From assembly GCA_045536625.1 (NCBI GenBank), contig JAZSNY010000018.1:1-61414 (forward strand): a stretch of DNA of 61,414 nt. Reading direction: 5' to 3'. Made by a program: the position numbers and the translations under genes. Numbering within the stretch: position 1 is the first letter of the stretch; each line of letters starts with the position of its first letter. A model generated the notes under the pieces. The model saw only the letters and a program-made list of their open reading frames with translations, was not told where the DNA came from and did not search any database. The DNA comes from Candidatus Enterousia sp. GTDB lineage: Bacteria > Pseudomonadota > Alphaproteobacteria > Rs-D84. Of this stretch, positions 2,836 through 61,414 are shown one piece after another.

Positions 2836-2863
2836 AAAAAGCCGGCAAACACCGGCTTTTTTT
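2836..2863. terminator. Bidirectional intrinsic terminator between accC and the mini-HTH gene
   Basis: AAAAA-GCCGG-caaaca-CCGGC-TTTTTTT; the stem is flanked by an A-tract and a T-tract. Confidence 0.7.
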
Positions 2864-3050
2864 ATAACAAAGATTCCAGAGGATGACGCGTTATGGATAT
2901 AAACATTACTAACTGATATATTGTGGGGTGTATATGATTGTAAATGATATTACGGTATTCTGATTCTGTAACCCCCATTGTATTACAGACCTCAATTACT
3001 GATAAATTTCGCAATGTACGAATATATTCAATTTCATGTCCCAAAGTCAT
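2862..3050 (-). CDS. Mini HTH (XRE/Cro-like) protein, copy A
   Basis: 62 aa, MTLGHEIEYIRTLRNLSVIEVCNTMGVTESEYRNII...PTIYQ. Paralogous to the ORF at 19150-19335 (shared GH-IE-IR...PTIYQ...PLE pattern). Start set at the second ATG, which has GGGGA 6 nt upstream. Confidence 0.6.
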   Translation of the reverse strand: MTLGHEIEYIRTLRNLSVIEVCNTMGVTESEYRNIIYNHIHPTIYQLVMFISITRHPLESLL

Positions 3051-3071
3051 TTCCATTCCCCAGTTTTTCTA

Positions 3072-3242
3072 AAATAAAAAACCACCTTGGAATAGGGTGG
3101 TTGGAGGTAGAAATCACGACACTTCGTGGCTCGGGTATTCAATGTATTAACCGACCTCCAACCACGGGTTGGAGCAATTAACGCCTGCGCAGGCGAGTGT
3201 GTCGCGAGATTTCTAGCCTCGCATAATAGGTGCCCTATTACA
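3072..3242 (-). ncRNA. Structured leader/sRNA, copy A of a 4-member family (ends approximate)
   Basis: Has its own promoter and the terminator AACCACC/GGUGGUU + U-run. Helices: UAGAAAUC..CGACAC / GUGUCG..GAUUUCUA and CUCCAACC/GGUUGGAG, followed by a 3' CCUCCAACC. Same architecture as the copies at 19358, 19572 and 61160. Confidence 0.55.
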
Positions 3243-3248
3243 ATCGGT

Positions 3249-3313: not shown

Positions 3314-3390
3314 GGGTGGTTAGCTCAGTTGGTTAGAGCGTTACGTTGACATCGTAAAGGTCGTTGGTTCGAGTCCAATATCACCCACCA
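3314..3390 (+). tRNA. tRNA-Val (anticodon GAC)
   Basis: Folded by hand into a 77-nt cloverleaf: acceptor GGGTGGT/ATCACCC, anticodon loop TTGACAT, T-loop TTCGAGT, encoded CCA. Confidence 0.95.
3375..3390 (+). repeat. attL-like direct repeat (inside tRNA-Val)
   Basis: 16 nt, with one mismatch to 11940-11955. Weaker similarity extends about 9 nt further upstream (GGTTCGAGTC vs GGTTTCTGAC). Confidence 0.6.
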
Positions 3391-3533: not shown

Positions 3534-5324
3534 GTGGTGAGACGTGTAAATATAAAAAATTTAGTACTTCGTGATGGTGTGTACTATTTTCGGATGGCAG
3601 TAAAACGGCCAGACGGTTCATTCAAATCCGTACGGCAAAGTTTGGGTACAACCGACTTTGATGCCGCTGTGGTGAAAATGATAAATCAAAGGAGACTGTA
3701 CATGTTGATTGCCGGACTAGATATACCAGATAACTACGACAAATCCATACGTGACATCAATGATTATAAGTCACGTATCTCAGAAAATGACGATGTTGCA
3801 AACAATGTTATAGCAAAAGAATTTGAACATTTGTCTGACGAAGAGTTAGTTGACCGTTTGGTGCGTTGCCAAGAGATAATAGAAGCATGCCACGGGGAAG
3901 AACAGCCGGCAGGGAAGAATATACTAAACACCTTGAAATTTGTATTACTTGAAGCAAACAAATTGCAAATCGCCTATAATGACCGTTATAAGAATGAAGT
4001 AATGGCGGCAACCGGCATGGCCCCCGAAGAAAATTTTGAATTTGTCCCACATATCTATAAATTATACGAATTTGCAATGTCAAAAATAGGTGCAAGGTGT
4101 AAAAATTTATTAGAATTAGAAGATAGATATAAAGCGGTTTGCGTGCCTTTGACAACTGCGCCCGCCGCTAGATATTTACAGACTATCGCGCAGCCCATTC
4201 CGACACCCCAACATTCCATCAGTACCATAGTCGCAGAAATGACAGAAAGGAACGCAGAGTCACATAAAGAACGTACGATGGATAACATTGCTCGTTGGCT
4301 CAAGACGGTTGGTCTAACTCTTGACGACACATACGATAAAATCAACAATCCAACAATTATATCTCAGATTGCGAAAAATATCAAAAACGCAACCGGTATG
4401 AATCGCGACACAAAAAATGAATATTTAGGGCAGTTTGAAAAATTGGTAAATCAAGCACATTTGAAAGAGCCAGACTATTACTTGAAAGAAAAGCTTATCT
4501 ACCCGCTTGGAAGATTGAAAAAAGCGACTAAAAACGATAAAAAAGCATATGGAATGTTTAGTGATAGCACACTGGCAAATATATTTGATACCAACAATAC
4601 TTGTTTCAAACGATATCCGGAAATGTTTTTGGCTGATTTGATAGGGTTGTATTCTGGCTCACGGACAACGGCTGCTATTACATTACAGTTTGGCGACATC
4701 AAGCAACTATATGGCTGTTGGTGTATTGATTTTTGCTGCAATAACGATTTCAAACGTCTGAAGAATGAAGCAACCGAGCGTGAGTGGCCAATGCCAAAAC
4801 AGTTGGTTGACTGGGGATTGCCAGAACTTATAAAAAAGAAACAGAAACAAATCAATGCCAAGGATACTGATTTCATTTTTATGCGCACAAACCTATTTTT
4901 GACAGACGAAAAACAAAGAAAATCAACAAATACTACAAGCCAGAGAACGAAAAAAGAACCTGCCGCAAAGTGGTTCGGTCCACAAAAATCATATTGGACA
5001 AAACAATTGAATATCACAGATACAGAAAAAAAGAGATTTGGCTTTCATTCGTTTCGTAAAACAGCCAGCCATACCGCCTCTAAATTTGGGATTAGCGAAG
5101 AAATGAAAAATAAACTTATTGGCTGGGAAGGGACGACCACTCAACAAAGATTTTATTCCGAAAAAGAATTTTTAGAAATAAAAGAAAACTCTGACAAAAT
5201 GTATTATCCAGAAGATGTTTTGCATTTGGACGAATGGAAGCCGGTCATTCATGATTTGTATTTACACCCAGAAAAAATCAGTAAACAACGTGGAAAATAT
5301 AAACCGAAAATAAAAACAGACTAA
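3534..5324 (+). CDS. Tyrosine recombinase / phage-type integrase (long, 596 aa)
   Basis: N-terminal RDGVYYFRMAVKRPDG is arm-type-like. The C-terminus has GFHSFRKTASH (HxxR), LIGWEG and RFY (catalytic Tyr region). Adjacent to the tRNA. Start is GTG; the exact start is uncertain. Confidence 0.8.
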   Translation: MVRRVNIKNLVLRDGVYYFRMAVKRPDGSFKSVRQSLGTTDFDAAVVKMINQRRLYMLIAGLDIPDNYDKSIRDINDYKSRISENDDVANNVIAKEFEHLSDEELVDRLVRCQEIIEACHGEEQPAGKNILNTLKFVLLEANKLQIAYNDRYKNEVMAATGMAPEENFEFVPHIYKLYEFAMSKIGARCKNLLELEDRYKAVCVPLTTAPAARYLQTIAQPIPTPQHSISTIVAEMTERNAESHKERTMDNIARWLKTVGLTLDDTYDKINNPTIISQIAKNIKNATGMNRDTKNEYLGQFEKLVNQAHLKEPDYYLKEKLIYPLGRLKKATKNDKKAYGMFSDSTLANIFDTNNTCFKRYPEMFLADLIGLYSGSRTTAAITLQFGDIKQLYGCWCIDFCCNNDFKRLKNEATEREWPMPKQLVDWGLPELIKKKQKQINAKDTDFIFMRTNLFLTDEKQRKSTNTTSQRTKKEPAAKWFGPQKSYWTKQLNITDTEKKRFGFHSFRKTASHTASKFGISEEMKNKLIGWEGTTTQQRFYSEKEFLEIKENSDKMYYPEDVLHLDEWKPVIHDLYLHPEKISKQRGKYKPKIKTD

Positions 5325-19044: not shown

Positions 19045-19120
19045 GCCGGTGTAGCTCAGTTGGTAGAGCATCTCATTCGTAATGAGGGGGTCGTAGGTTC
19101 AAGTCCTATCACCGGCACCA
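19045..19120 (+). tRNA. tRNA-Thr (anticodon CGU)
   Basis: 76-nt cloverleaf: acceptor GCCGGTG/CACCGGC, anticodon loop TTCGTAA, T-loop TTCAAGT, encoded CCA. Confidence 0.95.
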
Positions 19121-19128
19121 GGAATTTG

Positions 19129-19152
19129 TAAATCCCCGTTTCGGGGATTTTA
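19129..19152. terminator. Bidirectional terminator between tRNA-Thr and mini-HTH gene B
   Basis: AATCCCCG-ttt-CGGGGATT followed by T-rich sequence. Confidence 0.7.
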
Positions 19153-19335
19153 TATTTCCAATGGTTTACGCGTGTTTATAACAACCATTATCTGTTGATA
19201 TATTGTTGGGGCAACCATGCCCGTACGTATTTTATGATAATCCATTTCCGATGTCAGCCCCAGTATGTCACACATTTGATATAATGGTATATTTTCAGAA
19301 ATACGAATACGTTCTATTGCATGGCCGACATTCAT
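19150..19335 (-). CDS. Mini HTH (XRE/Cro-like) protein, copy B
   Basis: 61 aa, MNVGHAIERIRISENIPLYQMCDILGLTSEMDYHKI...PTIYQQ. Paralog of 2862-3050. Start set at the internal ATG that aligns with copy A. Confidence 0.6.
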   Translation of the reverse strand: MNVGHAIERIRISENIPLYQMCDILGLTSEMDYHKIRTGMVAPTIYQQIMVVINTRKPLEI

Positions 19336-19357: not shown

Positions 19358-19527
19358 TAAAGAAACCGCATTTGAATTTCAAAAGCGGTTGGAGGTTAAG
19401 AACTATCCAAGAATAGTGCCGTTTATTTATATATATCCCGGCCCTCCAACCAGGGTTGGAGGTTGTTTTATGTCTTGCCAGACATCTTGGAGAGGTTCTT
19501 ATACCCCACACCGGGATTGTTCCGATG
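19358..19527 (-). ncRNA. Structured leader/sRNA, copy B1 (ends approximate)
   Basis: Promoter TTGCAA-17-TATAAT; helices UAAGAAC..CCAAGA / UCUUGG..GUUCUUA and CCUCCAAC/GUUGGAGG; 3' CCUCCAACC; terminator AACCGC/GCGGUU. Ends about 25 nt before the HTH start. Confidence 0.55.
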
Positions 19528-19534
19528 CAACTTT

Positions 19535-19563
19535 ATTATATTTACATAAAATACAAATTGCAA
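19535..19563 (-). promoter_or_regulatory. Sigma70-like promoter of RNA copy B1
   Basis: Minus strand: TTGCAA (19563-19558), 17-nt spacer, TATAAT (19540-19535). Confidence 0.55.
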
Positions 19564-19571
19564 CCATTTGA

Positions 19572-19747
19572 TAAAAAAACCGCGTTTGAATTTCAAAAGC
19601 GGTTGGAGCTCAAACACTATCAAAGCGAATAGCGGGCTTATTCAATATATTCACCACACTCCAACCGATAAAGAGGTCGGAGTTTTTTACGCCACTTCTG
19701 GCGCGCTTTGACGGGCGTTTGAAACCCACACCGGGATTGTTCCGATG
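19572..19747 (-). ncRNA. Structured RNA, copy B2, orphan with no downstream ORF (ends approximate)
   Basis: Same architecture with covarying helices UUCAAAC..UCAAAGCG / CGCUUUGA..GUUUGAG and CUCCGACC/GGUUGGAG. Terminator AACCGC/GCGGUU + U7 abuts the B1 promoter. Confidence 0.5.
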
Positions 19748-19754
19748 TAACTTT

Positions 19755-48600: not shown

Positions 48601-51030
48601 TTAACCCAAGGCGCCCTGGCGCTTTAAATATTCACCAACAAAATTATTTCCGTACATTTTGTATAGTTCTTCGGCCAATAATACAGAGGAACGTCCCGAT
48701 TCAAACAAGCGCAACATATTACCCAATCCACCAAGTTCCGTATTTAATATAACCGATTCACCATTTACCGGACGGGATAATAATACCGCGCGCTTTAAAT
48801 TCGGGTATGCCTTGCCCTGGATAAAGGCCATTTCAAGCGGGTTTAAGTTCCAATGTACATAATCATTGCTGTCGGCCGCAGGATTGCGAAAGAACATAAC
48901 CGTTTGGGCCTGACCACGGACAACATCACCAATGCCAAGTTTATCCAAAATATTTGCACGTTGGAATGCGACCATATAAGCTTGGCGATTTTTACGTCCC
49001 TCTTGCAGGCCGGCAATAAAATTGTCGCGGAACATTTTGTTTTCCAACATCGGTGCTGTTTCGTCAATCATAATTAGCGACGGATTTCCACCAGATACTG
49101 TTATATTATTAATTCGATGTAATATATATGATATAACCGCCGGCGCCAGGGTTTCATCCTGTAATATATCCGTAAAATCAAAAGTTGTTAAACGTGAGTG
49201 TAAATCCAATGTATCGGATGCTTCGTTAAACATATCGCCATATTGTAACGGATCAACCCACTTTTTAAGGGCAGGGCGCATGTTACCATTTGATGAAAAA
49301 CAACTTTCCCACAGATTCTTTAACAGACGGTCTTGGTCAGATAAATAATCAAAATTAACAGATACCGCACGGGCAATTTCATCGGCCGAATTCGCATCGG
49401 ATTGCCCCGATATTATCGCAAACCAACGACGTAAAAATGCGCGATTTGCCGCCGTGTCCGGCATCTTTAACGGATTTAGACGTGTCATAAAACTTTGTGC
49501 CATTGGGTCGGTATTTTTTTCTTTGCCCTGCATGGTGATATATTTACCACCAACCGCCATGGTAAATATTTCCGCGCCTTTGTTTCGGTCAAAGAAAAAT
49601 GCCTTTAATTTCGGATGACGCAGGGATTGCGCAATCAAGAACGAAAATAACGTTGTCTTACCACCACCGGTCGGTCCAATCGTCATAGTGTGACCAACCG
49701 CCGCCGGTTTGTCCGATACATGAAACTGAAATTGATATGGGGTGCCCTGGGCCGTGGGAAATACAACCAAGGGGCCGGGACCCCAATCGGAATTTGCAAC
49801 ACCACGTGGTTGGGTCGACATTGGTATTGATATTGCCGCCGTGCGGGATAATAATTTAAAACTGCGTGGAAATACATCAAATCCGGGTATTTGTGCAAAC
49901 CAAGAAACCTTGGACGCAAAGGTTTCAACAATCGGGGATATACCAAATGATGCAGATATCTTTTTAAATTCGTCAATATGTTTTTGCAAAGCCTCGCGGG
50001 TTGGGGCAAACAATATGAATAATGGATAATAATTTACCAACGTTTGGTTGCCAGATATATTTTCATCCATTGCCGTCTGAACCGCAGATATTTGATCTTC
50101 GGTTGAATCCTTGGATTCTTCGTCGGCGGTTGAGCGGCGTTGACGTATCGTTTTTTCAATATCAGTTGCACCCATTATTCCAAAGCCGTTCATACATATC
50201 ATTTCGGTTTGGATTGTATGGACTGTATCAAAAAATTCTTCGTCCAGATAATCAGGCGATATCTTAAATGAAAGACATGCTGCGAACGATTGTTTGCCAC
50301 CACTGATATAACGAACAATACCATCGCGCATAAATTCTACATCATCAACCGTTGTCAAATTTGCAATATTGTTATCGGCCGTTTTTGGAGACGGTTTTGA
50401 TATGGGAGATAATATGCGCCCAAAGAAACGTGCCATATTGTCAGGTGTATTATTTTTTAATACACGTGGTTTATATGCCGCCAATATGGATTCTATGTAA
50501 TTACCGTATTGATTTAACTTTGCCCGCGCGTCCGGACCAGATACTGATAATACAATATAATAACTGTTTAAAAATATCTTTAATCCCTGGCCCTGCCATT
50601 TATTATAAATTTGCTGTAATACAGGTTGGTCAAATTCATATTTTAAATTTTCATCGGCCGCATCGCGAACTGTATAAAAACGTAAAACCGTGCCGCGATC
50701 GCGAATTTGATTGAATAACTGGGCCCGAAGTTCCAAAAATTTAGCCTTGGTGTCATTGTCCTGCATACTGGTCTGGATGCCGGAAACACGATATACGCGT
50801 ATCAAAGAACCGTCCGTTAATGACATAGAATTGTCATTATATACCGTCTTGAATGGCAGGTAATTTGCATATTTGGCATAACCAAAGCGTGGAAATATTT
50901 TTCGTGTAAATGTCGGTATGTATATTATTAATACAATAAATAGTAACAGTACAAGCAATACCATAACCGTCACAGTTATTGGAAAACCGGTGCCCGCAAA
51001 ATAATTAAAAATATCTGAAAAATTTGTCAT
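48601..51030 (-). CDS. virB4: Type IV secretion system ATPase VirB4
   Basis: 809 aa, Walker A GPTGGGKTT, Walker B-like SLIMIDE, overlaps virB3 by 4 nt. Confidence 0.92.
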   Translation of the reverse strand: MTNFSDIFNYFAGTGFPITVTVMVLLVLLLFIVLIIYIPTFTRKIFPRFGYAKYANYLPFKTVYNDNSMSLTDGSLIRVYRVSGIQTSMQDNDTKAKFLELRAQLFNQIRDRGTVLRFYTVRDAADENLKYEFDQPVLQQIYNKWQGQGLKIFLNSYYIVLSVSGPDARAKLNQYGNYIESILAAYKPRVLKNNTPDNMARFFGRILSPISKPSPKTADNNIANLTTVDDVEFMRDGIVRYISGGKQSFAACLSFKISPDYLDEEFFDTVHTIQTEMICMNGFGIMGATDIEKTIRQRRSTADEESKDSTEDQISAVQTAMDENISGNQTLVNYYPLFILFAPTREALQKHIDEFKKISASFGISPIVETFASKVSWFAQIPGFDVFPRSFKLLSRTAAISIPMSTQPRGVANSDWGPGPLVVFPTAQGTPYQFQFHVSDKPAAVGHTMTIGPTGGGKTTLFSFLIAQSLRHPKLKAFFFDRNKGAEIFTMAVGGKYITMQGKEKNTDPMAQSFMTRLNPLKMPDTAANRAFLRRWFAIISGQSDANSADEIARAVSVNFDYLSDQDRLLKNLWESCFSSNGNMRPALKKWVDPLQYGDMFNEASDTLDLHSRLTTFDFTDILQDETLAPAVISYILHRINNITVSGGNPSLIMIDETAPMLENKMFRDNFIAGLQEGRKNRQAYMVAFQRANILDKLGIGDVVRGQAQTVMFFRNPAADSNDYVHWNLNPLEMAFIQGKAYPNLKRAVLLSRPVNGESVILNTELGGLGNMLRLFESGRSSVLLAEELYKMYGNNFVGEYLKRQGALG

Positions 51031-53686: not shown

Positions 53687-54589
53687 ATGAAAACACCAAA
53701 ATGGTTTTTAAAGAAGAATTTATTTTCGGTTTTATTAATCCCTGTGTCTTGGGTTTATTATGTTTTTAGCAGATTGGTATTTTATGTGCGGCGTTCGGGG
53801 GCAATGAAATCACGCAGAAAGATTATCTGTGTTGGTAATATCTTAACAGGTGGGGTTGGTAAAACACCAATTGTTAAACAAATAGCAAGCTATTTTGATG
53901 CACCAGTCGTTATGCGTGGTTATAAAAAAAGTAAAAATACTAATAATGTAGGTGACGAGGCAACTATGTTGGCGCGGGCCGGTTTGGCCGTGCATGTTGG
54001 GGACAGAAAAAGTAATATAATTTTGTTGAATAATCAAAATGATGCGGTTGGTCCGATTGTTATGGATGATGGTTTGCAAAATCCAACCATTGCCAAGGAT
54101 GTGTCTATAATTGTTTTTGATCAGGGTATAGGATATGGAAATGGATTTTTGTTACCGGCGGGGCCTTTGCGGACACCGAAAAAAAGTGCAGGTAAGGCAG
54201 ATGCGATAATTGTTATTCGTAACCAAACACCAAAAAAGAATTTTAAATTACCGAAAAATGTACCGGTCTTTTATGCGGATAATAAAACAATTTCACCGTA
54301 TGATGATACTCAAAAATTAGTTGCCTTTGCAGGAATTGGATATCCGGGAAAATTTTTTAAGTCTTTGAATAATGTCGTGGCGGTGCGTGCGTTTGCTGAT
54401 CATTATCAGTATACGGACGAGGATATAAAAAAATTGTTTGAATTGGCAAAAAAACATAATGCAAAATTGATTACAACCGAAAAAGATTGGGTGCGTTTGC
54501 CTGTGCAAATTCGTGATGAAATAAAATATGCAAAACTGGATACGGTTATAGAAAATAGATTTTGGGACTGGTTAAAGGAGAAATTATAA
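53687..54589 (+). CDS. lpxK: Tetraacyldisaccharide 4'-kinase
   Basis: P-loop VGNILTGGVGKTPIV. Start set at the ATG at 53687, after the upstream stop. Confidence 0.9.
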   Translation: MKTPKWFLKKNLFSVLLIPVSWVYYVFSRLVFYVRRSGAMKSRRKIICVGNILTGGVGKTPIVKQIASYFDAPVVMRGYKKSKNTNNVGDEATMLARAGLAVHVGDRKSNIILLNNQNDAVGPIVMDDGLQNPTIAKDVSIIVFDQGIGYGNGFLLPAGPLRTPKKSAGKADAIIVIRNQTPKKNFKLPKNVPVFYADNKTISPYDDTQKLVAFAGIGYPGKFFKSLNNVVAVRAFADHYQYTDEDIKKLFELAKKHNAKLITTEKDWVRLPVQIRDEIKYAKLDTVIENRFWDWLKEKL

Positions 54590-55530
54590 TGGCTACTTTT
54601 AAAAATTCGATATGTATTTCGGGTGTTGGAATTCATTCGGGAAACGTGGTTAATGTTGTGGTAAGACCGTCCGATAAGTATGGAATCTTTTGGCGACGTA
54701 TGGATATGCAAAATACGGATTTAATACCGGCGATGTTTGATAATGTTGGTGAAACAAAAATGCGTAATACCACAATAGGTAAAATGTCGGGTGCACATGT
54801 TCAAACGGTGGAGCATTTGATGGCGGCACTGTTTATGGTTGGGGTGGACAGTGCAATTATTGAAATAGATGGTGCGGAAACCCCGATTTTAGATGGTAGT
54901 GCGGCAGAATTTATCAAGGCCTTTGAACAGGCGGGGGTGACAAAAGGGGAGGTAAAAAAGATTATTGTCAAGCGTCCTGTTATTGCATATGCGCATGAGG
55001 TATTAAAACAATTACCGTGGTTTGTCAGGTTAAAGTTATGGATTGTTAATAGAATTACGGGACGAAAATCGGATGGTTTTGTTAGTTTGAAACCAAATAA
55101 GGGTGATTCTTTGGATATTAAGGCAACATTGGTTTATCCAGAAAAAATTATAGGGACACAATCTTATACTTATTCTTATGATGGAACAAAAAAGTCAGTT
55201 AGGGACTTTGTTGAAAATGTGGCAAGGGCACGTACCTTTGGCAAGTATTCCGAGTGGGAATATCTGAAAAAACGTGGTATGGGGCGTGGGGCAAGTGAAA
55301 AAAATGTTATTGCCTTGAATGATGCGGGTGATGCGACAATTAATCCGACAATTTGGCCGGATGAGTTTGTACGACATAAAATTGTAGATGCCATCGGTGA
55401 TATGTTTACCAGTGGGGGGATGATTTGTGGTAATATGGAATCTTATAAAGGTAGTCATGCGTTAAATAATATAGTGTTGAAAAAATTGTTCAGTGACCCA
55501 GAAAATTATGATATAATTGATGCAAAATAA
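54589..55530 (+). CDS. lpxC: UDP-3-O-acyl-GlcNAc deacetylase
   Basis: GVGIHSG, TVEHLMAAL and HKIVDAIGD motifs. Start overlaps the lpxK stop (TAATG). Confidence 0.93.
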   Translation: MATFKNSICISGVGIHSGNVVNVVVRPSDKYGIFWRRMDMQNTDLIPAMFDNVGETKMRNTTIGKMSGAHVQTVEHLMAALFMVGVDSAIIEIDGAETPILDGSAAEFIKAFEQAGVTKGEVKKIIVKRPVIAYAHEVLKQLPWFVRLKLWIVNRITGRKSDGFVSLKPNKGDSLDIKATLVYPEKIIGTQSYTYSYDGTKKSVRDFVENVARARTFGKYSEWEYLKKRGMGRGASEKNVIALNDAGDATINPTIWPDEFVRHKIVDAIGDMFTSGGMICGNMESYKGSHALNNIVLKKLFSDPENYDIIDAK

Positions 55531-55539
55531 AATAAAGGA

Positions 55540-55962
55540 ATGGATGTCATGAAAAAAATATTTGCTTTGATGGCTGTATTATTTTCGGTTGTTGCATGCG
55601 GCGGAATGATAAAAAATGAAAATGGGAGTCAATATTTAGTGCAATTGGATGCAGAACCGATTGGTTGTACCTTCTTGTACAAAATAGAGTCCGAAGTTTC
55701 GGTTTATGATACCGATGATGCCCGCAGGTATTTGGAAAACAGAATTGTTGATCAGGCACGTAATGGTAATGCATATTGGATTACAAGCCAGCGTACAAAA
55801 CCAAACGAGTGGGTAATCTTTGGGCCGGAACGTGCGTTTGTTTTGGTGGCAAATGTTTATGACTGTCCACATCCGAACAGTGTCCGTACCGCGCGTGGTG
55901 GAGGAACGGTTACTTATTCCCCGGTGGAAGGAACATCTTGTATATATGGAACATGTCAATAA
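55540..55962 (+). CDS. Small lipoprotein (possibly DUF4156-like)
   Basis: Lipobox FSVVAC. 140 aa, cysteine-containing. No firm family assignment. Confidence 0.45.
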   Translation: MDVMKKIFALMAVLFSVVACGGMIKNENGSQYLVQLDAEPIGCTFLYKIESEVSVYDTDDARRYLENRIVDQARNGNAYWITSQRTKPNEWVIFGPERAFVLVANVYDCPHPNSVRTARGGGTVTYSPVEGTSCIYGTCQ

Positions 55963-55965
55963 ATT

Positions 55966-55991
55966 AACCCCGTCACAGTGACGGGGTTTTT
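55966..55991 (+). terminator. Intrinsic terminator
   Basis: CCCCGTC-acag-GACGGGG followed by TTTTT. Confidence 0.7.
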
Positions 55992-56077
55992 ATGTGTTTA
56001 TCGCGTGTTTAATTCGTTTGCCTTGGTCACGGATTTTATGTTATAATTACAAAAGTACGTACGAGAGAGAGTTTTTA

Positions 56078-57340
56078 TTGGCCAATAGAGTAATTCATAT
56101 TAATAAAAAAAAGTATGCCGTTGGTGTGTTTTGGCAACCAATGGGTGTTGAACAGGGTGCACGAAATTATGCACGAAGTCTGGCGCGCAGTGTTGATAAG
56201 AAACTAAATTTGTATACCGAATATAGGTCTATGGTTGGTTTGGCAGCCCGTAAAGATGGTGCGCGTGTGGGAATGCAGTGTGCCGCTGCAGAAGTTATGG
56301 AAAGTTTTTCCGAATATACATCTTTTTTGGCTGTTTTTGTTGTTCCAAATGGTTTCTATATGGTGGCCGCTAGAAATGGTGTGATTTTGGTCGATAGGCT
56401 TTTTGATTCAGAACAAGATGCCCGAAATGAATATGTGAAATTATCTGAAATTCCAGATTGGGGGGCCTTCTTTGCGCCGGGGGTATGGGGAATGCCACGG
56501 GCCGCAGAAAGAAATTTAGCGGATTTATTAAATGGTCAATCGCGTGCGGTTCTGCATACTATCAGTCGTATGGGATCACGTATGGTTTCGGTGATTATTT
56601 TTGGGATATTTGTTTTGGGGATGGCGTTTGTTTTTCGTGATTCTATTGTCCAGACTTTGGCACCGCGGCCCCAGGTTGCAGAGCTGAATCCAGAATTAGT
56701 TGCAGAATATAAAAGACAGATTGAAGAAAAAGCAAAGGAATTAGATGAGCAGTTTGAAATTGAAAAGACTTTGCCACCGGAACCAATTGTTATGCCATAT
56801 GAATTGTTGCCGGATATGATGGCACGTGCATCGCAATGCTATCAGGCAATTGCATTTGTTATGCAGCCGATTTCGGGTTGGAATCAGGTAAATGCTGTTT
56901 GTGGCGAGGCGCATGCCATTGCGGAATTTAAACGTGACTTTGGTACCTTGGAAGAGTTTTATAATATTGCAACAAATTTAATGCCGGGTGCATTTGTTAG
57001 CGAAGTGGATGAAGATACCATTCGGATTCAGGTTACTTTGCCGCAATTAGAAACTGTTTCCAGTCAAGATGAGCGTGATGCAGATACTATTGTACGTGAT
57101 GTTACATCAGTATTCCAAGCGATTGATACGCCAATTGATTCAGAAATTGTGGTTGATACATTAACAAATGGTGTTGATGTTAAATCCGTTAATGTGGTAG
57201 AGGTGGCGGTGCGTTCAAAATTGATACCACAACAATTTATGGAAATCTTTCAAGATTTTGGTGGTGTTTATTTAATGCAGGCGGCATGGGACGTGCGTAC
57301 ACGTTCGTGGAACTATGAGGTGTTAATCTATGCAAAATAA
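56078..57340 (+). CDS. Type IVb pilus assembly protein, PilO2 (R64 PilO)-like bitopic protein
   Basis: N-terminal KKKYAVGVFWQPMG, one central TM segment (MVSVIIFGIFVLGMAFVF), then a coiled coil and a periplasmic domain. First gene of a four-gene overlapping operon. TTG start proposed (GAGAGAGAG 8 nt upstream); the ORF track begins at 55994. Confidence 0.45.
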   Translation: MANRVIHINKKKYAVGVFWQPMGVEQGARNYARSLARSVDKKLNLYTEYRSMVGLAARKDGARVGMQCAAAEVMESFSEYTSFLAVFVVPNGFYMVAARNGVILVDRLFDSEQDARNEYVKLSEIPDWGAFFAPGVWGMPRAAERNLADLLNGQSRAVLHTISRMGSRMVSVIIFGIFVLGMAFVFRDSIVQTLAPRPQVAELNPELVAEYKRQIEEKAKELDEQFEIEKTLPPEPIVMPYELLPDMMARASQCYQAIAFVMQPISGWNQVNAVCGEAHAIAEFKRDFGTLEEFYNIATNLMPGAFVSEVDEDTIRIQVTLPQLETVSSQDERDADTIVRDVTSVFQAIDTPIDSEIVVDTLTNGVDVKSVNVVEVAVRSKLIPQQFMEIFQDFGGVYLMQAAWDVRTRSWNYEVLIYAK

Positions 57341-58025
57341 GAAAAAAATATTTGGTTTTGTTTTTTGTGGGGTATTTTTGTTTGCAAGTGCGGCGTGTGC
57401 GGCGGACGTGTTTATAGAAGAAGAAATAATAGAAGAGGGGGATGTTGAACAATTGTCCGCAGATGCCGTTGCAGAATATAATCCGATGGGGTCTTTGTTT
57501 CAACAGATAACCGACCTGGAACAGGAAAAGGTTTTAATGCAATTGGAAAAAGAACGCGCGCAATTAGACCTGGAATTGGACAGATTGGCCGCAGAAAAAA
57601 TTAAACTGCATATGGAAATAGATACTTTGTCCGGACGGGCCGAACAGCAACAACAGGAAATAGAAACCCAAAAGGCCAAGTTAGAGGCCGAGGCCGCACG
57701 TATTGAGCGTGAAAAGGAATCTTGGTTAAAAGAAATTGAACAGGCCGATGCAAAAGAATCAAAATCTGTGGCGGGGTCAACGACCGTGGTTCGCGAAGAA
57801 AAAGACATGGATGTTTCAAAAAATTGGAGATTGGTTAATGTGGTTGGGGCCGGTGCACAATTACAGGCAACGGTTGAAGATTTAAATAATGGACAAAAAC
57901 GTCGTATAAATGTTGGCAAGGAATTAGATGGTTTAACCGTGAAATCCATATCGTTGTATGATGGGGTGGTGTTGGTTGATAAAGATGGTAATACCCAGGT
58001 GTTAAATGTTAGTGGTGGAAAATAA
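57330..58025 (+). CDS. Type IVb pilus PilP-like protein
   Basis: Signal/anchor, a long Q/E-rich coiled coil, and a C-terminal WRLVNVVGAGAQLQATVEDLNNGQKRRINVGKELDGLTVKSI... beta domain like R64-type PilP. Confidence 0.45.
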   Translation: MQNKKKIFGFVFCGVFLFASAACAADVFIEEEIIEEGDVEQLSADAVAEYNPMGSLFQQITDLEQEKVLMQLEKERAQLDLELDRLAAEKIKLHMEIDTLSGRAEQQQQEIETQKAKLEAEAARIEREKESWLKEIEQADAKESKSVAGSTTVVREEKDMDVSKNWRLVNVVGAGAQLQATVEDLNNGQKRRINVGKELDGLTVKSISLYDGVVLVDKDGNTQVLNVSGGK

Positions 58026-58030
58026 TTAAT

Positions 58031-59665
58031 ATGGCAAAGGAAAAAGAAATCTTGGGTGGTGAAAATATTGCGGATATGCCGTCTGTGCCGGCGGGGCTAG
58101 AGGCAGCAGATTCCAAAGATATTATAGATTTTTTGTTCGAAAACGGTAACAGGCTGTTGACCGCAACGGGTGCGATATTGGAATTGCCACATGATACCCA
58201 GGGTTTGGTTGCCTATTTTACAGGTGGTGAAATTATTATTTCGCGTACGCATCAATATGATGGGCGCGTGTTGGCCTTTGTTGATTTATTGAAACGCCGT
58301 GGCAGAAAAATGCGTAGACCCTTTTATTCTGATTTGGGGTTGATTTCAAATATTTATAAATCATATGAAATGCGTTTGGGTGGTGCGGGGCGTGGTCGTG
58401 TGGATTTTGATAACCAAATGCAAAAGGATTTTGTTGATATTATTGCCAAGGCCGCCGCACAAAAGGTGTCTGATGTTCATATCGAAGTTGCAGACCAAAC
58501 AACCATTTTCTTTCGTATTGATGGCAGTATGCAACCCGTTATGGAATATAATTCACAATGGGGGGAATCTTTTGTTCGTGCCGCGTTTGCTTCGTCGGAT
58601 ATGTCCAATGCAAACTATGCGCAAAATGAATATCAGTCTGCACAAAAAGATGGGCGTACGCCTTTGCGTGGGACCAAGGATTTGTATTTGCCGACGGGTG
58701 TGTTGGGTATTCGTATGCAATTTAATCCGATTGCTTTTGGCAGTCGATATGTTGTTATGCGATTGTTGTATGATAACCCGTCCGAAGGATTAAAGACAGA
58801 ACAGGAATTTGGACCATATGAACAAAGGTTGTTGGCGCGTTTGCGTTCTTTTCCGACGGGATTGGTTATTGTTGCGGGACCGACCAGTTCGGGAAAATCG
58901 ACGACATTGGTTCGTAATATGTCCATGATGTTGCGCGAACGTAATTATGAAATAAATATGATTACGGTGGAAAATCCGGTTGAACAAAAAATCTTTGGTG
59001 CGCGGCAAATGCCCGTGGTAAATACAACCAACGAAGAACAGCGTGAAGAAAAATATGTGGAAGCATTGGCGGCGGCGTTAAGAAGTGACCCTGATACACT
59101 GATGGTTGGGGAAATTCGCACATTGGCGGCCGCCGAATTGACGGTGCGTGGGGCGTTGTCGGGACATAATGTGTGGACGACCCTGCATGCGAATTCGGCA
59201 ATGGCGGCATTGACACGTTTGTTGGATTTGGGGGTTGAATCTTTTAAATTAAAAGAAGAAACTTTGATGCGTGGTTTGGTGTCAATGCGTTTGTTTAAAA
59301 AGTTATGTCCGCATTGCCGTGAACAATTGATTAATCATCCGGAACGTGGTGCATACAGACGTGTGATGGATGCATATGGTGAAATTGGCCTGCGTCAGGT
59401 TTATCAACGTGGGGCCGGGTGTGCGCATTGTCATGGTACGGGTAATGTTGGACGTGTCAAGGCCGGTGAAATTATTATCACCAACAGTGAATTTTTGCGG
59501 TTGGCATTGGCGGGCGAAACTGATTCGGCAGTACGGTATTGGATAGAAGAAATGGATGGGCGTACATTGAAAGAGGCGGCCGTATCACTGATGTTACAGG
59601 GGATTATCAGTATTGACGAAGTAGAACGTTGGGTTGGTCAGTTGGATCAACCGGGGGTGTACTGA
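58031..59665 (+). CDS. GspE/PilB-family secretion ATPase (R64 PilQ-type)
   Basis: Walker A GPTSSGKST, Asp box, Walker B LMVGEIR, His box TLHAN, and the tetracysteine CPHC...CAHCHGTG. Confidence 0.9.
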   Translation: MAKEKEILGGENIADMPSVPAGLEAADSKDIIDFLFENGNRLLTATGAILELPHDTQGLVAYFTGGEIIISRTHQYDGRVLAFVDLLKRRGRKMRRPFYSDLGLISNIYKSYEMRLGGAGRGRVDFDNQMQKDFVDIIAKAAAQKVSDVHIEVADQTTIFFRIDGSMQPVMEYNSQWGESFVRAAFASSDMSNANYAQNEYQSAQKDGRTPLRGTKDLYLPTGVLGIRMQFNPIAFGSRYVVMRLLYDNPSEGLKTEQEFGPYEQRLLARLRSFPTGLVIVAGPTSSGKSTTLVRNMSMMLRERNYEINMITVENPVEQKIFGARQMPVVNTTNEEQREEKYVEALAAALRSDPDTLMVGEIRTLAAAELTVRGALSGHNVWTTLHANSAMAALTRLLDLGVESFKLKEETLMRGLVSMRLFKKLCPHCREQLINHPERGAYRRVMDAYGEIGLRQVYQRGAGCAHCHGTGNVGRVKAGEIIITNSEFLRLALAGETDSAVRYWIEEMDGRTLKEAAVSLMLQGIISIDEVERWVGQLDQPGVY

Positions 59666-59666
59666 T

Positions 59667-60737
59667 ATGAAAAAACTGGAACTGTTATATGCCAAGATGA
59701 TGTTCCGTTTGAATACGGAAAAACGTATGGCGATTTGTCGCAAATTGGCATCATTGTTGCGAAATGATTTTACATTGATTGATGCGCTGGAACGTTTGGA
59801 AATGGTTGAATCAAAAAATGGGACCAAGCCAAATGAACCTTTTGCGATTGTAATGCGCCAATGGCAAAAAAATTTGGAACGTGGGATGACCTTTTCCGAG
59901 GCCACACGTGGTTGGGTTCCGCCAAATGAAACCCTGTTGGTGACAAGTGGTAATTTATCCAACCTGGTTGTGGCATTGGAAAATGTTGGGCGCGTGGTCG
60001 ATGGTATGCAACGTATCAGACGCGCGATGACGACGGCCGTGGCATATCCATTGTTTTTGTTGGCGTTGACATTTGGTATTATTATTATGGTGGGAATCTA
60101 TTTGGTGCCACCGTTGGCCGAAGTTGCCGGAAATACCGTTGTGTGGCGTGGAACGGCGCGCAGTTTGGTATGGTTGTCAGATTTTTCAATTCAATATTGG
60201 TATGTGTTTTTGATTGTTTTTGCATCATTGGTTGCGATTATATGGGCCAGTCTTGCAAATTGGAGTGGTCGCCTTCGTGCGGTGTTTGATAGGTTTCCAC
60301 CGTGGAGTACATATAAAATTCAGGTCTCGGTTGGATGGTTGATGAGTTTGGCCGCAATGGTCAGTGCGGGTGTTACCATACCCGATGCAATGCGGATGTT
60401 GGCGGATAATGCAAACAGGTATTTACGAAATATACTGGATCGAACTTTGCGCTTTATTGCAAATGGTGATAACCTGGGGCGTGCGTTGCATAATACGGGA
60501 CGCGGATTCCCGGATGATGAAATTATTGGTGATTTGACAATTTATGCCGATATGAACGGGTTTGATGAAAATTTAACCCAGGTTGCGGCAGACTATTTAA
60601 ATGAATCCGTCCGTAAAATGGAGAAGATTTCAAACACACTGAACAGTTTGGGAATTTTGTTGGTATCCGCAATTATTGCGTGGGTTGTGTTGGGAACGTT
60701 TCAGATGCAGGATCAGATTACAAGTGCATTATCATAG
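59667..60737 (+). CDS. GspF/PilC-family platform protein (R64 PilR-type)
   Basis: 356 aa, two GspF-type repeats with three TM segments. ATG lies 1 nt after the ATPase stop. Confidence 0.85.
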   Translation: MKKLELLYAKMMFRLNTEKRMAICRKLASLLRNDFTLIDALERLEMVESKNGTKPNEPFAIVMRQWQKNLERGMTFSEATRGWVPPNETLLVTSGNLSNLVVALENVGRVVDGMQRIRRAMTTAVAYPLFLLALTFGIIIMVGIYLVPPLAEVAGNTVVWRGTARSLVWLSDFSIQYWYVFLIVFASLVAIIWASLANWSGRLRAVFDRFPPWSTYKIQVSVGWLMSLAAMVSAGVTIPDAMRMLADNANRYLRNILDRTLRFIANGDNLGRALHNTGRGFPDDEIIGDLTIYADMNGFDENLTQVAADYLNESVRKMEKISNTLNSLGILLVSAIIAWVVLGTFQMQDQITSALS

Positions 60738-60879
60738 GCGTTTCATAACTTCTTGTGTTTATTTTAGAGTGTACCTAATAAATAAAGGGTATGTTATGGC
60801 GATAAAAGATCTGCTTTGATGGAAATCGCGTTCATGCAAAAAGTGTAAAAATTGGAAAAAATATCCTGATTACACGGGA

Positions 60880-61085
60880 TGAAAAAGGTGGGGACCTGGT
60901 TAAAACCCAAAAGGGTGATGTTCCCGGAACCCAGGTAATGCGCGTGAAACGCGTGCGAATTTGTTGTAATTGTTTTTATAAAAAATAAGAAATAATAACC
61001 TGGTTCCCGGTGTCAAGCACCGGGATGACAGAAGAAGAAAAACAAACCTGGGGCCCGGGGGCCAAACAAGCTGCGGAATGACAAA
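60880..61085. repeat. Cluster of GC-rich palindromic repeat units (dispersed family)
   Basis: CCTGGTTCCCGGTGtcaagCACCGGGATGACA (60999-61030, perfect 7-bp hairpin), GGGGGCCAAACAAGCTGCGGAATGACA (61057-61084), and degenerate units at 60883-60935. Confidence 0.5.
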
Positions 61086-61124
61086 GCGGAAAAAATCAGC
61101 GGTTGTAAAAATAAACTTTTGAAT

Positions 61125-61153
61125 TTGCGTTTTGGGTTTGTTTTGCGTATAAT
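61125..61153 (+). promoter_or_regulatory. Sigma70-like promoter of RNA copy E
   Basis: TTGCGT (61125-30), 17-nt spacer, TATAAT (61148-53). Confidence 0.5.
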
Positions 61154-61159
61154 GGTCAT

Positions 61160-61304
61160 GCATTGGGAAACCGGTGTGGGGCGTAAGAACCTCTTAACAG
61201 AAAACTCCGACCTTGTTGGTTGGAGGGTTGTGAATATATTGAATAAGCACGCTATTACTGTTAATAGTTCTTAACCTCCAACCGCCTTTTGTGCGGTTTT
61301 TTTG
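61160..61304 (+). ncRNA. Structured leader/sRNA, copy E (ends approximate)
   Basis: CCGGUGUGGGG box; helices UAAGAAC..UUAACAG / CUGUUAA..GUUCUUA and CUCCGACC/GGUUGGAG; 3' CCUCCAACC; terminator AACCGC/GCGGUU + U7. An SD AAGGAGG follows. Confidence 0.55.
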
Positions 61305-61327
61305 TTTAACAAAACAAGGAGGATAAA

Positions 61328-61414
61328 ATGAGCATTGTATTGGTGGACAGCAAATATTTTGGTCAGTATTTAACCCGTGCGCGCAAGACCGTAAATCTGC
61401 GTCGCGTGGATGCG
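61328..61414 (+). CDS. Mini HTH-type protein, 5' part (runs off the right edge)
   Basis: ATG 5 nt after AAGGAGG. MSIVLVDSKYFGQYLTRARKTVNLRRVDA resembles the first helix region of XRE-family proteins. Only 29 codons are visible. Confidence 0.4.
   Translation, partial: MSIVLVDSKYFGQYLTRARKTVNLRRVDA

Follow-up and report, generated by a model that had tools for sequence, protein, structure and literature searches.

Two classes of bacterial RNA are the closest described parallels to the element analyzed here. The Brt RNAs of Bartonella are about 200 nt long, are abundant, and are located 10-18 nt upstream of silent XRE helix-turn-helix (HTH) genes (trp) that lack a promoter of their own (PMC5387305, PMC8070961). 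Deletion of the 3' stem-loop of Brt1 resulted in high transcription of the downstream HTH gene trp1, by which this RNA was shown to be an attenuator (PMC8070961). Brt RNAs were reported to be specific to Bartonella and to be always tied to HTH genes (Tu et al. 2016, PMC5387305). The sRNA-Xcc1 (Rfam RF02221) accumulates as an RNA of 88 nt in Xanthomonas (PMC2996969) and is present in five tandem copies in Xylella (PMC12189769). In Bartonella, biofilm and BadA regulators are under the control of Brt1, and many phages, integrons, and islands of Proteobacteria carry sRNA-Xcc1. Hemin is reported to affect Brt1, for which a gfp reporter exists in B. henselae. Within the literature library searched, no publication named both Brt1 and sRNA-Xcc1. 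Here, we describe an RNA that resembles both of these previously unconnected RNAs. It is encoded at positions 61159-61303 of the forward strand of a 61,414 nt stretch of DNA from Candidatus Enterousia sp. (assembly GCA_045536625.1, contig JAZSNY010000018.1); this whole stretch was analyzed and is called the window in the following.

The RNA, referred to as copy D, is one of four copies in the window, which scored 101-122 bits with the covariance model R1 described below; the three copies on the minus strand aligned over their whole length. In our view, the region probably encodes a cis-regulatory leader RNA that is present in multiple copies and works as an attenuator by terminating transcription conditionally, a reading that draws on sequence comparison, predicted folds, and analogy to described RNAs. 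At its center are two near-identical CUCCAACC boxes, for which the comparison of copies supported competition for one GGUUGGAGG partner beside a terminator.

All parts of copy D are located on the forward strand. A sigma-70-like promoter was read from the sequence at 61125-61153 (-35 TTGCGT, 61125-61130; 17 nt spacer; -10 TATAAT, 61148-61153). It is followed by the 5' hairpin P1 (CAUUGG GAAA CCGGUG, 61160-61177), which was present in the minimum free energy (MFE) fold and showed double changes in seven of eight pairs within the family, and by the hairpin Pa (GGGG/CCUC, 61178-61193) with a covarying stem. The Pa loop, UAAGAA(C) at 61184-61190, constitutes site a' and pairs with site a (GUUCUUA, 61267-61273), which lies directly 5' of box 2. 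The linker after Pa contains site b' (UUAACAG, 61194-61200), which is complementary to the Pc loop region (CUGUUAA, 61258-61264) and forms a helix with it in the MFE fold. Box 1, the partner, and box 2 were found exactly where a preliminary description of the locus had placed CTCCGACC (61205-61212), GGTTGGAGG (61218-61226), and CCTCCAACC (61275-61283). Box 1 (CUCCGACC) forms a local hairpin with the partner, is conserved, and covaries with box 2 (CCUCCAACC). The partner is the strand common to two alternative helices, the other of which comprises 9 bp with box 2. Between the partner and box 2 lie the hairpin P4 (61227-61251), with a conserved loop of 16 nt (GAAUAUAUUGAAUAAG, 61232-61247), and the hairpin Pc (CUAUUA CUGU UAAUAG, 61252-61267), which bears site b and has a covarying stem.

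The intrinsic terminator (61280-61303) consists of AACCGC/GCGGUU and a U-run, and its 5' arm begins within box 2. Its arms had been placed correctly before (AACCGC, 61280-61285; GCGGTT, 61293-61298). The seven U residues that had been described after GCGGUU correspond to seven T at 61297-61303, the first two of which are inside the stem. Downstream, a Shine-Dalgarno (SD) sequence (AAGGAGG, 61316-61322) and an ATG (61328-61330) open a gene for a small XRE-like HTH protein (MSIVLVDSKYFGQYL...; 61316-61414), which is cut by the end of the window. The distance of 25 nt, which had been given for the SD sequence and the start codon together, applies to the interval from the T-run to the ATG.

One genome per species was scanned with the pattern GGTTGGAG N4-9 RATAYAT N30-46 CTCCAACC, from which box 1, the terminator, and the downstream gene are absent. 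At least 118 stretches matched in these species-representative genomes, compared to about 7 expected by chance according to our own uniform-composition estimate. The element is not a chance pattern. Nearly all matches were in metagenome-assembled genomes (MAGs) of uncultured gut or rumen Alphaproteobacteria (Candidatus Enterousia, 'Rickettsiales bacterium', RUG and RGIG bins), and several MAGs had at least three matches; the number of copies per genome is at least 3-4. The closest relative of copy D among the matches listed was in a Candidatus Enterousia MAG (L034). An alignment of 123 copies (A2) was used to build R1, and this model detected 16 further, more divergent copies on the fetched loci. 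Scans of viral contigs gave no match for a Brt-type three-box pattern and three matches for the family pattern, from which we concluded that the family is not mainly phage-borne.

The elements in A2 follow the order P1, Pa, an optional Pb, box 1, partner, P4, Pc, box 2, and terminator. In 104 of the 123 members, one and the same alignment position was occupied by a -10 box that matched TATAAT in at least five of six positions. As judged from the alignment, every helix is supported by covariation. Over the whole structure, 90.8% of the cells were paired, compared to 76.7% in shuffles. The covariation score was 0.379 for the alignment and 0.159 for shuffled alignments, none of 500 shuffles reached the actual score, and values of only 0.04-0.09 were obtained when the partners were slid by 1-3 columns. 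G·U cells strongly outnumbered A·C cells (376 vs. 103); therefore, the signal is strand-specific and acts at the RNA level. The a':a helix showed AU/CG/GC/UA exchanges at each position, with 91.5% of its cells paired. For b':b, the longest complementary run between linker and Pc loop had a median of 8 nt in the 123 copies and of 4.6 nt with shuffled loops. The P4 stem covaried in all five pairs around a nearly invariant loop sequence, and the Pc stem covaried as well (pair 195-214: UA 82, AU 30). According to these pairing data and the MFE fold, the term three-way junction, which had been used for the structure, is a poor description. Three sites of the 5' half pair, in antiparallel order, with sites of the 3' half, to which the 5' half is in effect antisense.

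Eight of the nine pairs between partner and box 2 were fixed by the search pattern. The free ninth pair covaried (GC 98, UA 14, UG 8, unpaired 2), and divergent copies had fully compensated partner/box 2 pairs such as GGUCAGGAGG/CCUCCUGACC, GGGGUUGGACAG/CUGUCCACCCC, and GGUCGGGGUG/CACCCCGACC. These changes bear out the 9 bp pairing between partner and box 2 that had been proposed before. Strong evidence that this is a real helix also comes from two L042 tandem copies and the L018 copy, which lack a matching box 1 and keep the helix in a compensated form (e.g., GGGGUUGGACAG/CUGUCCACCCC). Box 1 was conserved even though it was outside the pattern: CUCCA was found in 93-100% of the copies and ACC in 77-88%, and most departures were C-to-U changes that retained a G·U pair. 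The three elements change together in individual lineages: box 1, partner, and box 2 read CUCCUGACC, GGUCAGGAGG, and CCUCCUGACC in L053, CCUUCUGCC, GGCAGGAGG, and CCUCCUGCC in L023, and CACCCCUGAC, GGUCGGGGUG, and CACCCCGACC in L112, while L021 has UCCCGACC both as box 1 and as box 2 together with the partner GGUCGGGA.

A first shuffle test of the box 1:partner pairing, in which G·U was allowed and mononucleotide shuffles were used, was uninformative because the G-rich partner pairs with any C/U-rich stretch. We therefore applied a permutation test to 13 lineages, among them Brt and two phage Xcc1 elements, each lineage being represented by a single copy. Upstream of the partner, the sequence was closer to box 2 of its own lineage than to a foreign box 2 (P ~1e-5).

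The 3' arm of the terminator, GGUU, pairs with AACC of box 2 in 94-120 of the 123 copies, and the distal stem covaries (pair 233-265: AU 65, GC 51; pair 234-264: CG 110, UA 11). When AACC of box 2 is changed to GACC, as in L021, this is matched by a change of the terminator arm from GGUU to GGUC. The partner:box 2 helix overlaps the terminator by 3-4 nt. Covariation, the permutation test, and this overlap indicate, at the level of sequence comparison, that the two pairings of the partner, which had been described before as mutually exclusive, are both under selection, and that one of them competes with the terminator. Conservation, three-way covariation, terminator overlap, predicted folding, and position support an attenuator logic with competition for the partner. 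By analogy, this logic is also supported by the experiments on Brt, an RNA of the same architecture.

ViennaRNA predicted the same MFE fold for all four copies of the window, with P1, a long interrupted hairpin, and the full terminator. The interrupted hairpin is held together by the GGGG stretch of Pa and CUCC of box 2, by the a':a and b':b helices, and by box 1:partner; box 2 is thereby split, with its AACC going into the terminator. Of the two folds that had been set side by side in the preliminary description, the one with box 1:partner was well represented, this helix being present in the MFE fold of 120 of the 123 copies and ACC of box 2 being part of the terminator in 111 of 123. Imposing the partner:box 2 pairing carried a median cost of 13.3 kcal/mol in a nested model that ignores pseudoknots. 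On account of the MFE frequencies and this cost, termination is the predicted default, and read-through would need help.

We propose the following mechanism. Each copy would be transcribed from its own sigma-70 promoter. Its 5' half would present site a' in the Pa loop, site b' in the linker after Pa, and box 1, and the 3' half would offer, in antiparallel order, site a before box 2, site b in the Pc loop, and the partner. By default, box 1 would take the partner as soon as the latter is transcribed and box 2 would be left free. AACC of the free box 2 would then join the terminator stem, and transcription would stop 25 nt before the gene, with a stable RNA of about 145-190 nt as the product. 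In the alternative state, partner and box 2 would pair over 9 bp and close a core of P4 and Pc that is similar to sRNA-Xcc1. The terminator stem of 6-7 bp would lose 3-4 bp, leading to read-through into the downstream gene. The two states would interconvert in vivo, and the choice between them would be made by a factor, for example a ligand or protein at the P4 loop or a trans-acting RNA, by which box 1 would be sequestered or the core stabilized. With regard to the modelled structure, the conserved P4 loop is a reasonable candidate for such a binding site. The a':a and b':b helices could persist alongside partner:box 2 if Pa and Pc folded locally; that both local stems form at some point follows from their covariation. 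The variable sequences of a/a' and b/b' would serve as the private address of each copy. If the competition takes place as proposed, a change of box 1 from CUCCGACC to CUGGGACC is expected to lessen termination. The model would provide a testable mechanism of three named helices, for which compensatory mutations can be read directly from the alignment.

In 109 of 126 copies, box 2 was followed on the same strand by an SD sequence and the start of an open reading frame (ORF), with a median distance of 50 nt, which is 20-25 nt past the U-run; the other 17 copies were mostly at locus ends or ahead of another copy. This spacing leaves no room for a separate promoter, which argues that the element acts as a leader. 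Among the downstream proteins, 22 were full-length, small XRE-like proteins of the type found behind copy D (71-77 aa), whose match to Pfam HTH_19 (E = 1.2e-5) was below the curated cut-off. Another 11 belonged to the type found behind copies A and B (60-67 aa) and had no Pfam match. Small HTH-like proteins accounted for 33 of the 109 downstream genes, and most of the others encoded unrelated signal-peptide proteins. This variety is the pattern of a portable leader before many genes. On the basis of this census, the earlier suggestion that the HTH product itself is the feedback signal was rejected as a general trigger. If the attenuator model applies, a large number of secreted or surface proteins and mini-regulators would be under coordinate control in never-cultured gut Alphaproteobacteria.

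We compared the family to 13 Brt copies from B. henselae, B. tribocorum, Bartonella sp. WD12.1, and plasmid pBGR3 (alignment A3). Like the family, Brt is a multi-copy alphaproteobacterial RNA with a hairpin at its 3' end, which in Brt is an attenuator. In 11-13 of the Brt copies, the elements follow the same order: P1 comes first, then Pa, whose loop is paired with the nucleotides immediately 5' of box 2, then the linker complementary to the Pc loop, and then box 1, the partner, and box 2. In A3, a':a showed double changes in four pairs, and b':b formed runs of 7-9 nt with a sequence unique to each copy in 10 of 11 copies. The Brt boxes have other sequences (box 1 CCCGGAA, partner UUCCGGGAG, box 2 CUCCCGGAA), the inner domain contains an extra hairpin, with P4 (UUUUGC/GCAAAA) enclosing YAUGUCCAG-hairpin-UAAAA, and the 3' hairpin lacks a U-run. 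Copy D, with its weak HTH_19 match and 25 nt from U-run to ATG, and the 22 copies with the same type of gene are located upstream of XRE-like HTH genes as Brt is, whereas about 70% of the family copies precede non-HTH genes, mostly for signal-peptide proteins. BLAST searches against plasmids gave no match for 61100-61414, even though pBGR3 with one Brt was included, and none for 54000-61414. With filters off, R1 scored 16.9 bits for the Brt of pBGR3 and 17.3 bits for an unrelated site; nothing significant was found with default filters. The window RNA probably works like Brt, with which it shares the architecture, and homology of the two is argued from the layout alone. If the model is correct, RNAs of the Brt type are not confined to Bartonella.

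The similarity to sRNA-Xcc1 concerns the 3' half of the RNA. In a permissive Rfam search, positions 1-87 of RF02221 aligned end to end with 61218-61291 of copy D (33.2 bits, E = 4e-4 in a 415 nt search), which does not reach the gathering threshold of 53 bits. Both RNAs have a closing stem of 9 bp, which corresponds to partner:box 2, two hairpins, and a 6 nt linker, and the same helices covary in the family. The first hairpin shares the motif AAUA.A...AAUAA, and the P4 loop aligns to the AUACAAUA...GAAUAAU core. A core closed by the counterpart of the partner:box 2 helix, the closing stem of sRNA-Xcc1, accumulates as an RNA in Xanthomonas. For eight other family loci, RF02221 produced no match at E <= 0.01, and the sRNA-Xcc1 model of Rfam had no match in the Brt copies. 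True Xcc1 elements of phage Aaphi23 and Stx phage P13374 (L130:1375-1600, L131:1395-1590), used as controls, scored 86 and 80 bits. In both phages, we found an unannotated Pa-like hairpin and a linker upstream of the core, which are complementary to the same two core sites. Both phage elements sit just upstream of a gene; this is ant in Aaphi23, where Xcc1 is 39 nt upstream and the two modules are flanked by the Q antiterminator gene on one side and ant on the other. Unlike in the family, a second terminator and about 60 nt are present between the two halves in the phages, the Rfam model comprises neither the 5' half nor box 1 nor a terminator, and the published role of sRNA-Xcc1 is that of a trans-acting RNA and not of a leader.

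A second subfamily was observed in the same gut MAGs (L034:3983-4187 and L021:1627-1815, both on the minus strand, L112:1655-1872 on the plus strand, and L042:6314-6504 on the minus strand). It has GGUCGGGG-type boxes and the inner motif YAUACAACAG-hairpin-AAAG, and in L034, an alpha-tmRNA gene (4574-4951) is found some 400 nt away from its copy. Members scored 38.5 and 32.7 bits with RF02221, below the threshold of 53 bits. This subfamily is intermediate between the main family and sRNA-Xcc1.

Further parallels exist to the c4 RNA of P1/P7, which controls ant, and to IsrK of Gifsy-1. In these systems as well, loops of an upstream RNA are complementary to downstream sites of the same transcript, as are a':a and b':b here, and alternative structures decide on the expression of a downstream regulator. 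The variable complementary sites of c4 reportedly confer specificity, a view that is said to go back to Citron and Schuster in 1990. The c4 and IsrK systems differ in that control is exerted at translation or via Rho and not by an intrinsic terminator built from a shared strand; in the window RNA, both halves are fused in one RNA. For IsrK, a terminated short isoform coexists with a long read-through isoform, and both derive from alternative cis structures (PMC4825925). Searches with copy D gave 15.7 bits (E = 0.45) for the Rfam isrK model (RF01394) and no match for C4 (RF01695). In phage P13374, true isrK and C4 elements are present 900 nt upstream of Xcc1 as separate elements. The arrangement also corresponds to that of the trp leader and of riboswitch attenuators, where four consecutive segments pair as 1:2, 2:3, or 3:4, 3:4 is an intrinsic terminator directly upstream of an ORF, and termination is the default. 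As in these attenuators, the selected alternative helix shares nucleotides with the 5' arm of the terminator, and a third segment, here box 1, competes for the antiterminator strand. Unlike in classical attenuators, segments 1 and 3 are near-identical copies, and two extra long-range helices (a':a and b':b) join the 5' and 3' halves.

We tentatively consider that Brt, sRNA-Xcc1, and the gut alphaproteobacterial family could be branches of one ancient superfamily of 'self-antisense' riboregulators composed of a 5' module, an Xcc1-like core, and a P4 receptor, a view to which we give a lower probability than to its negation. Two copy-specific helices might then address the core, and the shared helix of box 1, box 2, and partner might set ON or OFF at the terminator. 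The P4 loop (AAUAYAUUG..AAUAA) might, equally speculatively, be the receptor for a common signal such as a ligand, a protein like Hfq or ProQ, or a trans RNA. If such a superfamily exists, the mechanism of two orphan RNA classes would be explained, and small HTH regulators together with surface or secreted proteins of uncultured gut Alphaproteobacteria would form a regulon.

Several results weigh against a conditional terminator. The read-through fold is far less stable in the nested model and might never be populated, or only after processing. A sensor was not found: neither a leader peptide nor a T-box, known aptamer, or known protein-binding site was detected, with no match at Rfam gathering thresholds and no systematic search for a conserved leader ORF. 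A few copies have lost box 1 and kept partner:box 2 (L042 938-1113 and 264-440, L018 7107-7293, and the L081 copies), from which it follows that members of the family can do without the three-box competition. The scores of the covariance models lend no support to homology with Brt. In addition, sRNA-Xcc1 (88 nt) has been described as trans-acting (PMC2996969, PMC12189769), and a trans-acting role has also been suggested for Brt1 (PMC5387305). These last reports favor a stand-alone, trans-acting small RNA (sRNA) with a constitutive terminator, for which the boxes and alternative helices would be folding or processing intermediates. The Xcc1-like core could in this case be the excised active species, and downstream expression would be leaky read-through without regulatory meaning. 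The own promoter and terminator, tandem copies without an ORF (copy C and the L042 and L081 arrays), and the seed-like conservation of the P4 loop would fit such an sRNA. However, SD and ORF follow at a short, fixed distance in 109 of 126 copies with no room for a promoter, and a terminator stem made from box 2 and a box 1 that covaries with box 2 are needless for a plain sRNA terminator. Moreover, deletion of the 3' stem-loop of Brt1 de-represses the downstream gene (PMC8070961). We consider the stand-alone sRNA to be rather unlikely.

Control at the level of translation is even less probable. With their CCUCC, the boxes would act as an anti-SD mimic that occludes the SD sequence of the downstream gene or of other mRNAs, the partner with its GGAGG would resemble an SD, and the overlap with the terminator would be incidental. 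Besides the CCUCC and GGAGG motifs themselves, the GGAGG-like downstream SDs and the 3' hairpin of Brt, which has no U-run and abuts a GGGGG SD, speak for this possibility. Such a role, which had been raised as an alternative in the preliminary description, is not general, as CCCG/CGGG or CACC/GGUG replace CUCC/GGAG in related lineages that keep the three-box layout. Furthermore, the part of the box that covaries with the terminator arm is AACC/GGUU and not CUCC, and in the main family, the boxes are separated from the SD by the terminator. We also considered a repeat at the level of DNA, e.g., a miniature inverted-repeat transposable element, a recombination site, or another palindromic mobile element. 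It would account for the multiple copies, the nearby tRNA genes and integrase, the palindromic pair GGTTGGAGG...CCTCCAACC, and weak reverse-strand matches of R1 (22-31 bits). It was rejected on the asymmetry between G·U and A·C cells (376 vs. 103), which shows a strand-specific signal, and is very improbable also in view of covariation that preserves pairing and not sequence. A conserved promoter upstream and a terminator and SD downstream, always in one orientation relative to the ORF, likewise speak against a DNA repeat, and no terminal repeats or target-site duplications were seen.

The other three copies of the window are on the minus strand. Copy A (3075-3243, 101 bits with R1) is followed by a gene for a protein of 64 aa (2862-3056, minus strand) and is divergent from tRNA-Val (3314-3390). 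Copy B (19359-19529, 122 bits) is followed by a gene for a protein of 61 aa (19150-19335, minus strand). Copy C (19573-19749, 119 bits) lies in tandem directly upstream of copy B and has no ORF of its own. According to the alignment and R1, both boxes are retained in all four copies, as described before, and so are the partner and a terminator that begins within box 2. Copy A has the terminator AACCACC/GGTGGTT, also as described before. The Pc stem of copy A is CACGA/UCGUG, and copy C has GGUUGGAGU as partner and GCUCCAACC as box 2. In look-ups of exact proteins, the copy B-type mini protein had no record, and the copy A-type protein was on record solely on three metagenome contigs of about 1 kb. 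At gathering thresholds, Rfam detected only tRNAs over the window.

The copies that precede proteins of 60-67 aa have tRNA neighbors, which are tRNA-Val (3314-3390) and tRNA-Thr (19045-19120) in the window; beyond the window, copies at L006:595-913 and L045:1877-2236 adjoin tRNA genes. An integrase-like ORF of 596 aa (3534-5324) follows tRNA-Val. These neighbors suggest that copies of the A/B type mark island borders. Tandem arrays, in which each unit has its own promoter and terminator, were present in the window (19359-19749, minus strand) and at L042:48-1113 (minus strand), L081:2782-3134 (minus strand), and L085:733-1168 (plus strand). The two L081 copies have kept the half from partner to terminator, and their 5' halves are unrelated A/T-rich sequence.

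A metagenome scan with a 19-mer of the P4 loop was meant to sample copies with unconstrained boxes, and its matches were dominated by an unrelated repeat of termite-gut samples, which occurs in high copy number and is apparently eukaryotic. This element (L132-L211 and later; e.g., L142:700-1000, L158:3003-3021 and 5242-5260) has an identical P4 hairpin (GCGAAUAUAUUGAAUAAGC). The likeness extends past the searched 19-mer to UGGAGGGU just 5' of the hairpin and to a CCUCCA / UGGAGG / UCCUCCA three-box layout. The termite-gut element had no match in Rfam, and R1 matched its loop alone. The contigs contain almost no long ORFs, one of them carries a microsatellite, and they are probably eukaryotic. 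The P4 likeness may be due to chance, convergence, or transferred sequence.

The region immediately preceding copy D encodes a VirB4-like ATPase and a type IVb-pilus-like set (PilO-like, T2SSE ATPase, T2SSF) at 48601-51030 (minus strand) and 55994-60737 (plus strand), among genes with housekeeping functions (accC, metG, mutS, pheT, and a gene for a class I tRNA synthetase). The 300 nt spacer ahead of the copy D promoter (60840-61120) contains repeated inverted segments of the CCTGG...CCCGG / CCGGG type, e.g., at 60895-60935 and 61000-61065, which might represent another structured element.

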